From the NCBI RefSeq assembly GCF_024700885.2, contig NZ_CP117016.1: a stretch of 64,000 nt of DNA; one strand, 5' to 3'. The translations under genes and the position numbers were made by a program. Position 1 is the stretch's first letter, and each line of letters begins with the position of its first letter. This document shows, piece by piece, positions 9,098 through 52,183 of this stretch. The notes under the pieces are model-generated. The model was not told the DNA's origin and did no database searches. It saw nothing but the letters and a program-made list of their open reading frames with translations. This DNA comes from Escherichia coli (GTDB lineage Bacteria > Pseudomonadota > Gammaproteobacteria > Enterobacterales > Enterobacteriaceae).

Positions 9098-9402
9098 CCC
9101 GCCCGGAAATTCGCTTTCTGATGCGACTTGCGCTCCGTCTGGGGCGCACCTTATCCGAACTGCGGCACAGCCTGAGTGTGAGCGAGGCGATGATGTGGAT
9201 GGAGTTCGACAGGGTATCCCCGCTGGGTGATGAGCGCGGGGATATCCGTAATGCACAGATCGTGAAAGCGGTTTTTGGGGCACAGGGGATGAATGTTGCA
9301 CTGAAGGACGCCATGCTCTGCTGGGGCGAGGATGAGGATAAGCCGGAGGTGGATCCGTTTGCGGCGCTGGAAGACGCGCTGAGCTTTGCAGCACAGTCAT
9401 GA
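8723..9402 (+). CDS. Tail assembly chaperone G-T fusion (made by -1 frameshift at 9088-9094)
   Basis: G-frame ORF plus contiguous -1 frame ORF; conserved G/GT arrangement upstream of tape-measure genes in long-tailed phages. Confidence 0.7.
9088..9094 (+). promoter_or_regulatory. Programmed -1 ribosomal frameshift site (A AAA AAG) generating the G-T fusion
   Basis: Heptamer A_AAA_AAG in the G zero frame 1 nt before the G stop; the -1 frame is open from 9094 to the TGA at 9400-9402 (ORF-track ORF 9121..9402). Confidence 0.75.
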
Positions 9403-9410
9403 ATGATGAG

Positions 9411-9431
9411 AACCGCTGAGGCGGTTTTTTT
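9411..9431 (+). terminator. Hairpin plus T tract between GT and the tape-measure gene
   Basis: aaccgc-tgag-gcggtt followed by ttttttt. Confidence 0.35.
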
Positions 9432-9449
9432 ACGCCCGGAGAAAGGTGA

Positions 9450-48506: not shown

Positions 48507-48836
48507 TTTCTTGCGTTATTTTCGGCACCTTTTATGTAGCGAAGGTGCCGGAATATATTCTCTTTTGTTGCTTATTTGTATACCGTGCACAATATTTTTA
48601 TCCCTCATATTTATAGGGTAAATCACCTGTAAAGTAGTGTCTAATTACCCGCCTCGCAAACTCGAGTTTTCAAATATCTATTTCAGGTCAAAAGATTGAA
48701 TTATTCACTGGAGACGATTCGTAAATTCGCTGGATTTTTGACTAAAGTTTCTTTAGGATTTGTCTCATCGTATGATTAATTACACCAATCGTTCAACGTC
48801 TTGCTGATAAATGATGGCGATTATATGAGGTTAGCA

Positions 48837-48965
48837 ATGCCTTCTGGAAATCAGGAACCCCGCCGGGACCCTGAATTAAAACGCAAAGCCTGGCTGGCGG
48901 TATTTCTTGGTTCTGCACTTTTCTGGGTGGTTGTCGCACTGCTGATTTGGAAAGTGTGGGGATAA
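48837..48965 (+). CDS. ymiA: Small membrane protein YmiA
   Basis: MPSGNQEPRRDPELKRKAWLAVFLGSALFWVVVALLIWKVWG* with one TM helix. Confidence 0.6.
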   Translation: MPSGNQEPRRDPELKRKAWLAVFLGSALFWVVVALLIWKVWG

Positions 48966-48967
48966 CT

Positions 48968-49135
48968 ATGGTCGGTCAGGAGCAACTGGAGTCGTCACCA
49001 TTATGTCAGCATAGTGACAATGAACCAGAAACGAAACGGGAATGTTCCGTCGTTATTCCAGACGACTGGCAACTAACAACGCAGCAGCAAGCCTTTATAG
49101 AACTGTTTGCTGAAGATGATCAGCCGAAACAATAA
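48968..49135 (+). CDS. yciX: Small protein YciX
   Basis: MVGQEQLESSPLCQHSDNEPETKRECSVVIPDDWQLTTQQQAFIELFAEDDQPKQ. Confidence 0.7.
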   Translation: MVGQEQLESSPLCQHSDNEPETKRECSVVIPDDWQLTTQQQAFIELFAEDDQPKQ

Positions 49136-49248
49136 TTATCATCATTCTTATTACCCATTTTTAATGAATTAAAGGGCTTTTAATACACCGCAGCAATAAC
49201 AGGTTGAGTTATCTCAACACAAAGTAATAACCGTTAAAGGTGTAGCCT

Positions 49249-49344
49249 ATGATCAACACAAATATGAAATATTGGTCCTGGATGGGCGCGTTTTCTCTGT
49301 CGATGTTCTTCTGGGCCGAATTCCTCTGTATCATTACTCACTGA
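49249..49344 (+). CDS. Candidate 31-aa small hydrophobic protein upstream of acnA
   Basis: ATG ORF MINTNMKYWSWMGAFSLSMFFWAEFLCIITH*; I half-recall a K-12 small protein (ymiC) here but am not certain. Confidence 0.35.
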   Translation: MINTNMKYWSWMGAFSLSMFFWAEFLCIITH

Positions 49345-49507
49345 TCCCTGACCCCGCTGCGGCGGGGTTTTCATTTGCTTTGCCACAAGGTTTCTCCTCT
49401 TTTATCAATTTGGGTTGTTATCAAATCGTTACGCGATGTTTGTGTTATCTTTAATATTCACCCTGAAGAGAATCAGGGCTTCGCAACCCTGTCATTAAGG
49501 AGGAGCT

Positions 49508-52183
49508 ATGTCGTCAACCCTACGAGAAGCCAGTAAGGACACGTTGCAGGCCAAAGATAAAACTTACCACTACTACAGCCTGCCGCTTGCTGCCAAATCA
49601 CTGGGCGATATCACCCGTCTGCCTAAGTCACTCAAAGTTTTGCTCGAAAACCTGCTGCGCTGGCAGGATGGTAACTCGGTTACCGAAGAGGATATCCACG
49701 CGCTGGCGGGATGGCTGAAAAATGCCCATGCTGACCGTGAAATTGCCTACCGCCCGGCAAGGGTGCTGATGCAGGACTTTACCGGCGTACCTGCCGTTGT
49801 TGATCTGGCGGCAATGCGCGAAGCGGTTAAACGCCTCGGCGGCGATACTGCAAAGGTTAACCCGCTCTCACCGGTCGACCTGGTCATTGACCACTCGGTG
49901 ACCGTCGATCGTTTTGGTGATGATGAGGCATTTGAAGAAAACGTACGCCTGGAAATGGAGCGCAACCACGAACGTTATGTGTTCCTGAAATGGGGAAAGC
50001 AAGCGTTCAGTCGGTTTAGCGTCGTGCCGCCAGGCACAGGCATTTGCCATCAGGTTAACCTCGAATATCTCGGCAAAGCAGTGTGGAGCGAATTGCAGGA
50101 CGGTGAATGGATTGCTTATCCGGATACACTCGTTGGTACTGACTCGCACACCACCATGATCAACGGCCTTGGCGTGCTGGGGTGGGGCGTTGGTGGGATC
50201 GAAGCCGAAGCCGCAATGTTAGGACAGCCGGTTTCCATGCTTATCCCGGACGTAGTGGGCTTTAAACTCACCGGAAAATTACGTGAAGGTATTACCGCCA
50301 CAGACCTGGTTCTCACCGTTACCCAAATGCTGCGCAAACATGGCGTGGTTGGGAAATTCGTCGAATTTTATGGTGATGGGCTGGATTCACTACCGCTGGC
50401 GGATCGCGCCACCATTGCCAATATGTCGCCAGAATATGGTGCCACCTGTGGCTTCTTCCCAATCGATGCTGTCACCCTCGATTACATGCGTTTAAGCGGG
50501 CGCAGCGAAGATCAGGTCGAGTTGGTCGAAAAATATGCCAAAGCGCAGGGCATGTGGCGTAACCCGGGCGATGAACCGATTTTTACCAGTACGTTAGAAC
50601 TGGATATGAATGACGTTGAAGCGAGCCTGGCAGGGCCAAAACGCCCACAGGATCGCGTTGCACTGCCCGATGTACCAAAAGCATTTGCCGCCAGTAACGA
50701 ACTGGAAGTGAATGCCACGCATAAAGATCGCCAGCCGGTCGATTATGTTATGAACGGACATCAGTATCAGTTACCTGATGGCGCGGTGGTCATTGCTGCG
50801 ATAACGTCGTGCACCAACACCTCTAACCCAAGTGTGCTGATGGCCGCAGGTTTGCTGGCGAAAAAAGCTGTAACTCTGGGCCTCAAGCGGCAACCGTGGG
50901 TCAAAGCGTCGCTGGCACCAGGCTCGAAAGTCGTTTCTGATTATCTGGCAAAAGCGAAACTGACACCGTATCTCGATGAACTGGGATTTAACCTTGTGGG
51001 ATACGGTTGTACCACCTGTATTGGTAACTCTGGTCCATTGCCCGATCCTATCGAAACGGCAATCAAAAAAGGCGATTTAACCGTCGGTGCGGTGCTGTCC
51101 GGCAACCGTAACTTTGAAGGCCGTATCCATCCGCTGGTTAAAACTAACTGGCTGGCCTCGCCGCCGCTGGTGGTTGCCTATGCGCTGGCGGGAAATATGA
51201 ATATTAACCTCGCTTCTGAGCCTATTGGTCACGATCGTAAAGGCGACCCGGTATATCTGAAAGATATCTGGCCCTCGGCACAAGAAATTGCCCGTGCGGT
51301 AGAACAAGTCTCCACAGAAATGTTCCGCAAAGAGTACGCAGAAGTTTTTGAAGGCACAGCAGAGTGGAAGGAAATTAACGTCGCACGATCCGATACCTAC
51401 GGTTGGCAGGAAGATTCAACCTATATTCGCTTATCGCCTTTCTTTGATGAAATGCAGGCAACACCAGCACCTGTGGAAGATATTCACGGTGCGCGGATCC
51501 TCGCAATGCTGGGGGACTCGGTTACCACTGACCACATTTCTCCGGCGGGCAGCATTAAGCCCGACAGCCCAGCGGGTCGATATCTACAAGGCCGGGGTGT
51601 TGAGCGAAAAGACTTTAACTCCTACGGTTCGCGGCGTGGTAACCATGAAGTGATGATGCGCGGCACCTTCGCCAATATTCGCATCCGTAATGAAATGGTG
51701 CCTGGTGTTGAAGGGGGGATGACGCGGCATTTACCTGACAGCGACGTAGTCTCTATTTATGATGCTGCGATGCGCTATAAGCAGGAGCAAACGCCGCTGG
51801 CGGTGATTGCCGGGAAAGAGTATGGATCAGGCTCCAGCCGTGACTGGGCGGCAAAAGGTCCGCGTCTGCTTGGAATTCGTGTGGTGATTGCCGAATCGTT
51901 TGAACGAATTCACCGTTCGAATTTAATTGGCATGGGCATCCTGCCGCTGGAATTTCCGCAAGGCGTAACGCGTAAAACGTTAGGGCTAACCGGGGAAGAG
52001 AAGATTGATATTGGCGATCTGCAAAATCTACAACCCGGCGCGACGGTTCCGGTGACGCTTACGCGCGCGGATGGTAGCCAGGAAGTCGTACTCTGCCGTT
52101 GTCGTATCGACACCGCGACGGAGTTGACCTACTACCAGAACGACGGCATTTTGCATTATGTCATTCGTAATATGTTGAAGTAA
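49508..52183 (+). CDS. acnA: Aconitate hydratase A
   Basis: 891 aa, [26 protein letters not shown]; aconitase family. Confidence 0.97.

Follow-up and report, generated by a model that had tools for sequence, protein, structure and literature searches.

The open reading frame at positions 49249-49344 of the window, that is, of the whole analysed stretch of 64,000 nucleotides of Escherichia coli DNA, is almost certainly ymiC, which codes for the small membrane protein YmiC, a b4741-class small protein. The best overall explanation, and in our view a highly probable one, is that ymiC represents the translated last cistron of a PhoQ-PhoP-dependent operon, ymiA-yciX-ymiC, which is closed by an intrinsic terminator. 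Either the present analysis or the literature demonstrates that ymiC is coding, translated, membrane-located, PhoQP-dependent, part of an operon, followed by a terminator on its 3' side and conserved across the Enterobacteriaceae. The gene already has a name, entries in RefSeq, Pfam and NCBIfam and experimental validation, and the finding is therefore correct, but not new. Two aspects go beyond what is in print, namely the apparent paralogy of YmiA and YmiC, with one identical helix face, and a possible role of the ymiC terminator as a polymorphic switch.

The reading frame and its genomic setting

The frame starts with ATG and consists of 31 codons followed by TGA, as taken from the list of open reading frames and the sequence itself. 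The encoded peptide, MINTNMKYWSWMGAFSLSMFFWAEFLCIITH, contains 3 Trp, 4 Phe and 1 Tyr residues. It is located inside the spacer between yciX and acnA, which extends over 372 nt (49136-49507), as had been claimed in an earlier sequence-only reading and is confirmed by the list. The genes of this region and the putative ribosome binding site are arranged as follows.

48825-48965, + strand: ymiA, first cistron, coding for a small membrane protein of 46 aa (annotation, Pfam PF22868, NCBIfam NF000536)
48968-49135, + strand: yciX, second cistron, 55 aa (list of open reading frames; RefSeq annotation via the identical strain 1190)
49238-49242, + strand: Shine-Dalgarno-like AGGTG, 6 nt 5' of the ymiC ATG (read from the sequence)
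49249-49344, + strand: ymiC coding sequence (list of open reading frames, RefSeq WP_001605341.1, PF23694/NF041484, coding-type conservation, AlphaFold2)
49508-52183, + strand: acnA, coding for aconitate hydratase A, the downstream neighbour outside the ymiC unit (list of open reading frames, annotation)

The length of 31 codons is insignificant by itself, because the same spacer contains four further open reading frames of 41-60 codons, located at 49209-49334 (-), 49234-49386 (-), 49272-49454 (+) and 49375-49536 (+). It is conservation and family membership, not length, that raise the ymiC frame above chance. The product had been described as a hydrophobic single-helix peptide rich in Trp and Phe, which agrees with its three Trp and four Phe residues and with the AlphaFold2 model calculated from an alignment of 38 homologues, a single helix spanning residues 3-30 with a mean pLDDT of 82.9. 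No relative with a solved structure was found in the PDB.

Identity with ymiC and previous experimental evidence

A megablast search with the spacer returned matches in 5421 of 5426 complete E. coli genomes, 5415 of them over the full length, and the RefSeq label beneath the match reads "ymiC: small membrane protein YmiC". Strain 1190 is 100% identical to the window, and its ymiC product, WP_001605341.1, corresponds to exactly the same reading frame. The peptide matches the Pfam family PF23694 (YmiC-like) with 78.3 bits against a cut-off of 27, covering profile positions 1-31 of 31, and the NCBIfam equivalog model NF041484 with 55.3 bits against a cut-off of 42; all of the 38 YmiC orthologues collected here match PF23694 as well. 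The exact peptide of the window is found under the name YmiC on at least 1000 public contigs. Membership in the YmiC family is thus borne out by the profile score, the genomic position, the hydrophobic helix of about 30 residues and the coding-type evolution.

The experimental evidence comes from E. coli K-12. VanOrsdel et al. (2018) equipped the chromosomal ORF with an SPA tag, detected the protein and gave it the name YmiC; the same ORF was an unidentified positive of a tetracycline ribosome-profiling screen (PMC6001520). In a 2025 preprint, YmiC is one of 17 small proteins whose initiation reads in Ribo-RET (retapamulin) profiling were at least 3-fold more numerous at low Mg2+, and the fluorescence of a GFP-YmiC fusion was peripheral, indicating membrane localisation of the K-12 protein, whereas neither deletion nor overexpression of ymiC changed growth or morphology at low Mg2+ (PMC11429745). 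The genuine but under-annotated small membrane protein suspected by the sequence-only reading, together with an earlier report of one at this place in K-12, is accordingly YmiC, with RefSeq, Pfam and NCBIfam in agreement. Of the checks proposed in that reading, start-site mapping by ribosome profiling is positive in print for K-12 with both retapamulin (PMC11429745) and tetracycline (PMC6001520), detection of a tagged fusion is positive in print for K-12 by immunoblot of the chromosomal SPA fusion (PMC6001520), and conservation across the Enterobacteriaceae proved positive when analysed here on about 40 loci from 17 genera.

The window itself is not K-12: it is 100% identical to strain 1190, while its spacer shows 97.8% identity to that of the K-12 derivative MC4100. 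The YmiC variant of K-12 occupies the same position between yciX and acnA, has the same length and shares 28 of 31 residues with that of the window, including the invariant K7, Y8, W9, W11, G13, A14, F15, S18 and W22. The three exchanges relative to K-12, L20F, L25F and W27C, are departures from the family consensus at positions which are fairly conserved between genera. Note that the published detection and membrane localisation concern the K-12 allele, not the one with F20, F25 and C27 (PMC6001520, PMC11429745). Both alleles share the Shine-Dalgarno sequence and the terminator hairpin described below, with a T-rich tail that reads TTTTCATTT in the window and TTGTCATTT (interrupted) in K-12. 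The few differences among the three E. coli alleles compared here change the amino acid in most cases (3 of 3 between the window and K-12), which fits only moderate constraint on ymiC.

Some further variation was seen within the species. Spacers with at least 99% identity to that of the window occur in only 31 of the 5421 matching complete genomes, and intermediate ymiC alleles exist which carry only F20 or only C27. In strain EC931 (locus L004, 658-1447), a copy of IS1A interrupts the 3' end of ymiC, replacing the last residues of the peptide and parting the gene from acnA.

Conservation across genera and coding test

A search of representative proteins yielded 4 matches, all of them E. coli-like with at least 77% identity and including read-through and frameshift forms. 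Evidently, gene calling in public assemblies misses the divergent orthologues, and the comparison was therefore performed at the DNA level. One genome per species (100,044 species) was scanned with the back-translated motif K-Y-W-x-W-x-G-A-F; since this set is ascertained by the motif, it shows how ymiC evolves where it is present, not how frequently it is absent. The scan returned 61 loci, about 44 of which are from Enterobacteriaceae of 17 genera (Escherichia, Salmonella, Citrobacter, Enterobacter, Cedecea, Lelliottia, Leclercia, Kosakonia, Trabulsiella, Siccibacter, Franconibacter, Pluralibacter, Pseudenterobacter, Silvania, Huaxiibacter, Dryocola and Buttiauxella); the other 17 or so are unrelated chance matches, in about the number expected from the information content of the pattern. 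No locus from Klebsiella was recovered in this motif scan. Wherever an enterobacterial locus extends far enough, the gene order is ymiA-yciX-ymiC-acnA on one strand, with yciX remaining unmatched in 3 loci.

The comparison supports ymiC as a coding gene. The distance from Lys7 to the stop amounts to 25 codons in 41 of 42 loci, and the 16 codons which are unconstrained by the search pattern show entropies of 1.21, 0.47 and 1.44 at codon positions 1, 2 and 3, respectively. Ser18 and Trp22 never change, Phe21 and Leu20 hardly do, and either Gln or Glu is found at position 24; the third codon position of the invariant Ser18 varies freely. The pooled pN/pS value of the ymiC frame is 0.46, with pS saturated at 0.71, as compared to 0.76 and 1.84 for the shifted frames. 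Each of the five other frames is interrupted by stops in 25-37 of the 39 unique sequences, whereas the ymiC frame contains a lone stop in one sequence, upstream of Lys7, over a 93-nt core that includes the 6 codons before Lys7. Many of the orthologous loci contain a Shine-Dalgarno-like GGTG 5-8 nt ahead of the start codon, which is missing in a Cedecea/Dryocola-like group.

The second cistron behaves differently. The yciX products of other loci are 35-82% identical, and no tblastn match was obtained in three loci which have kept ymiA and ymiC, namely L063 (Salmonella enterica subsp. arizonae, 9239-9654), L040 and L045. yciX is far less constrained than the genes of its small membrane-protein neighbours, ymiA and ymiC.

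Operon control, terminator and promoters of acnA

In K-12, a reporter for the region 5' of ymiA was active in a PhoQ-dependent manner, while activity directly upstream of ymiC was negligible, which led to the placement of ymiC in a ymiA-yciX-ymiC operon (PMC11429745). The following elements of the window may be assigned to the start and end of this operon.

48746-48762, + strand: PhoP-box-like direct repeat AGTTTC-TTTAG-GATTTG, a putative control site of the operon (block conserved across genera)
49350-49379, + strand: intrinsic terminator with a G+C-rich stem of 8 bp, a loop of 4 nt and the tail TTTTCATTT (terminator scan)

The repeat deviates from (T/G)GTTTA-N5-(T/G)GTTTA at 3-4 positions, and a search allowing up to 3 mismatches gave 198 matches in the window. 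Because such weak matches are frequent, 48746-48762 is regarded as a candidate only, backed by its conservation across genera. The whole region 5' of ymiA (48700-48824) is strongly conserved across genera and contains, besides the repeat, a long leader ending with ...CGATTGTATGAGGTTAGCAATG; it is regarded as a candidate site of the PhoQ-dependent control described in print.

The hairpin of the terminator occupies 49350-49369, its stem beginning 5 nt after the ymiC stop, and a 61-nt stretch containing it folds at -19.2 kcal/mol. Of 42 orthologous loci, 34 have a hairpin followed by a T-run no more than 75 nt past the stop, with differing stem sequences, while the remaining 8 contain no terminator by this criterion. 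An RNA 3' end has been located less than 200 nt downstream of ymiC in K-12 (Adams et al., 2021; PMC7815308). In the tabulation of Cunningham 1997 given in PMC2760140, the start of the acnA promoter P2 is listed at -50 from the acnA start codon, corresponding to about 49458. Since P2 is thereby located downstream of the terminator, ymiC closes the upstream operon instead of leading acnA. A second acnA promoter, P1, was reportedly placed about 407 nt upstream, inside yciX, by Cunningham et al. in 1997; if it is real, its transcripts must cross ymiC and the terminator.

A natural variant of the terminator was encountered in strain SCU-123 (locus L002, 1020-1030), in which a deletion of 14 nt (CGGCGGGGTTTTCA, window positions 49360-49373) removes the 3' arm and the T-tract. 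It is present in 1138 of the 5426 complete E. coli genomes (21%), including Nissle 1917 and the type strain ATCC 11775, with the ORF being kept. The remnant left by the deletion does not form a fold (-4.7 kcal/mol, z = 0.14, as opposed to -19.2 kcal/mol for the window allele).

The spacer also harbours a longer TTG-initiated frame of 60 aa, which overlaps ymiC (49272-49454, +) and had been dismissed in the sequence-only reading. This frame contains stops in 28 of 39 orthologous sequences and has a pN/pS value of 1.8; it runs across the terminator and is shifted by the 14-nt deletion in 21% of the E. coli genomes. All of these observations back the dismissal.

Overlap with the RNA family STnc180 and elements of the spacer

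The region around ymiC is also covered by an RNA family, and the spacer upstream of the gene contains two further elements.

49176-49378, + strand: full-length match to Rfam RF02079, "Enterobacterial sRNA STnc180", comprising leader, ymiC ORF and terminator (covariance model)
49183-49199, + strand: conserved spacer motif ATACACCGCAGCAATAA, of which ACAC..CAGCAAT is kept across genera while the spacer is otherwise variable
49203-49218, + strand: hairpin GTTGAG-TTAT-CTCAAC in the yciX-ymiC spacer, part of the RF02079 consensus structure

The match to RF02079 scores 193.4 bits against a gathering score of 50 and covers model positions 1-208 of 208. Translation of the family consensus yields a YmiC-like ORF. 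Northern signals of STnc180 corresponded to 500-2000 nt and were called likely processed mRNA species by Sittka et al. (2008; PMC2515195). No discrete small non-coding transcript is apparent from these data, and the model is built around an ORF with coding-type conservation. We conclude that RF02079 represents the part of the operon mRNA which carries ymiC. STnc180 and this part are the same DNA, classified as an sRNA gene in Rfam, whereas the present and the published evidence identifies it as the 3' portion of an operon mRNA coding for protein.

By folding each sequence separately and anchoring the folds on the conserved motif, the spacer hairpin was found about 6-13 nt past the motif in all 36 loci with a recognisable motif, which another 6 loci lack. 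The stems of different genera show no relationship in sequence, and the mean z value against shuffled sequences is -2.3. RNAalifold gave no consensus structure for 19 leader sequences, because the stems are fully turned over and cannot be brought into register by MAFFT. The hairpin may serve in processing or stabilisation, or have some other role. In addition, the RF02079 model pairs ACACC with GGUGU of the Shine-Dalgarno region, a pairing for which the leader alignment gave no covariation support and which is absent from Cedecea-like loci.

Alternative explanations

The tight spacing between ymiC and its terminator might suggest that the gene serves as a uORF or leader, with translation near the terminator setting the amount of transcription that reaches acnA and the peptide being secondary, although such a role could coexist with a function of the peptide. 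With the stem positioned 5 nt past the stop, and judged from the generally known size of a ribosome footprint, a terminating ribosome would be close enough to cover the 5' arm. The two genes are adjacent and on the same strand at every locus that reaches acnA, transcripts from P1, the second acnA promoter reportedly mapped, would traverse both ymiC and the terminator, and ymiC-acnA belongs to a set of validated small ORFs, each followed by an RNA 3' end at a distance of less than 200 nt, which were proposed as candidate uORF regulators (PMC7815308). However, conservation is seen in the amino-acid sequence of the peptide, a transmembrane helix with invariant residues, and YmiC accumulates and localises to the membrane in K-12 (PMC6001520, PMC11429745). 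The tabulated P2 promoter (-50; PMC2760140) starts downstream of the terminator, 21% of the E. coli genomes have kept the ORF in spite of having lost the 3' arm and T-tract, and 8 of the 42 orthologous loci show no terminator by the criterion used. Of the features of an attenuator, a terminator right after the small ORF was found, but neither read-through dependence nor, in the folds, any alternative antiterminator pairing. We therefore consider a uORF as an unlikely explanation of ymiC; a role of this kind for acnA is possible as a secondary function, one that the architecture does not support.

Even less probable is the view that the stretch acts as the regulatory RNA STnc180, be it non-coding or dual-function, via base pairing or Hfq, with the ORF being incidental or an added layer. 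The full-length match of 193 bits, the seeding of the family from a cDNA obtained by Hfq co-immunoprecipitation in Salmonella (PMC2515195) and the conserved motif and position-conserved hairpin of the spacer speak for it, but the only transcripts reported are the likely processed mRNA species of 500-2000 nt (PMC2515195), the model centres on an ORF with codon-position periodicity and a motif at the amino-acid level, there is no known target, and promoter activity directly upstream of ymiC is negligible (PMC11429745). A type I toxin-like hydrophobic peptide would likewise be short and located in the membrane, and a preprint on the Shigella transcriptome lists ymiC among upregulated 'type I and II TA module components' (10.1101/2025.06.29.662172). 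This reading is contradicted by the published overexpression of ymiC, which had a negligible effect on growth, unlike that of DinQ in the same study (PMC11429745); moreover, the promoter scan revealed no antisense promoter overlapping the ORF, and ymiC belongs to a conserved chromosomal operon, not to a mobile or duplicated TA locus, which makes a toxin highly improbable. Finally, the four other frames of 41-60 codons overlapping the same 372-nt spacer could be taken to indicate that ymiC is just another open frame arisen by chance, but conservation, membership in PF23694/NF041484 and the K-12 literature are all contrary to this assumption and refute it, leaving it with a practically negligible probability. 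The reading of ymiC as the last cistron of the PhoQ-PhoP operon is therefore retained.

Relationship between YmiC and YmiA

As judged from profile comparisons, the products of ymiA and ymiC look like paralogues. An hhalign comparison of YmiC with YmiA alignments gave a probability of 91% and a score of 29.1 over 21 ungapped columns, in which the invariant residues of both proteins align as K-x3-W-x3-F-x2-S-x-L-F-W. Shuffling the columns of the YmiC profile 300 times resulted in scores of 10.0 ± 2.6 with a maximum of 20.7, none of the 300 reaching 29.1; when only the transmembrane part was shuffled, again 300 times, the highest score was 24.2. When YmiC members were compared with 24,736 Pfam models, YmiA-like (PF22868) was the sole other family below E = 0.1, with matches from 3 YmiC members and a best E value of 0.016. 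A possible paralogy is not mentioned in the preprint which studied both proteins (PMC11429745).

In addition to the common motif, both are small single-pass membrane proteins expressed from the same PhoQP-dependent promoter. YmiA differs from YmiC by its length of 46 aa, a charged N-terminal extension of 18 residues and a WKxWG tail, and it is the better conserved of the two, with a mean column identity of about 83% compared to 62% for YmiC. Overexpression of YmiA delayed growth and led to elongated cells, while that of YmiC had no effect (PMC11429745).

Proposed function of YmiC

When Mg2+ is scarce, PhoQ-PhoP switches on ymiA-yciX-ymiC, and YmiC is made as a single-pass inner-membrane protein of 31 residues. 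The terminator after the ymiC stop shuts the operon off from acnA, which is served by its own promoter further downstream. The helix of YmiC may then pack against a larger membrane protein, or against its putative paralogue YmiA, and this packing would tune the activity or stability of the partner during Mg2+ limitation. The conserved stripe K7-W11-F15-S18-(L20)F21W22-L25 may serve as the contact surface, and a membrane-embedded Glu/Gln24 would lie on a different side of the helix.

The invariant residues of YmiC show an i, i+4, i+7, i+11 spacing, and the same motif is invariant in YmiA. Moreover, the PhoP-controlled small membrane proteins MgrB, MgtS and PmrR work by binding larger membrane proteins, from which we infer a like mode of action for YmiC. 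These proteins resemble YmiC in having less than 50 aa, one transmembrane helix and an induction at low Mg2+ via PhoQ-PhoP (PMC11429745), but they share no sequence relationship with it, and YmiC differs from them in showing no phenotype upon deletion or overexpression. On balance, we see about even chances that YmiC modulates a partner through helix packing.

Implications

The impact on annotation is small. The value of the analysis is in showing that a true small gene was found, and a longer decoy ORF discarded, by a reader who had only the sequence at hand. The apparent paralogy of YmiA and YmiC, the terminator deletion and the misclassification in Rfam represent modest leads. The last of these illustrates that an "sRNA" family of Rfam can in fact be a segment of a small-protein mRNA, and the paralogy and the natural terminator-deletion alleles, as side leads, offer handles on the function of YmiC and on the coupling to acnA. 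It is conceivable, but rather doubtful at present, that the two putative paralogues act jointly and that the terminator polymorphism couples the operon to acnA in the deletion lineages. If this were true, a YmiA-YmiC hetero-oligomer or a shared membrane partner would explain the single deletions without phenotype, and the deletion lineages, which make up about one fifth of the E. coli genomes, would run PhoQP-driven transcription into acnA, tying the expression of aconitase A to Mg2+ starvation in these terminator-deletion lineages only.
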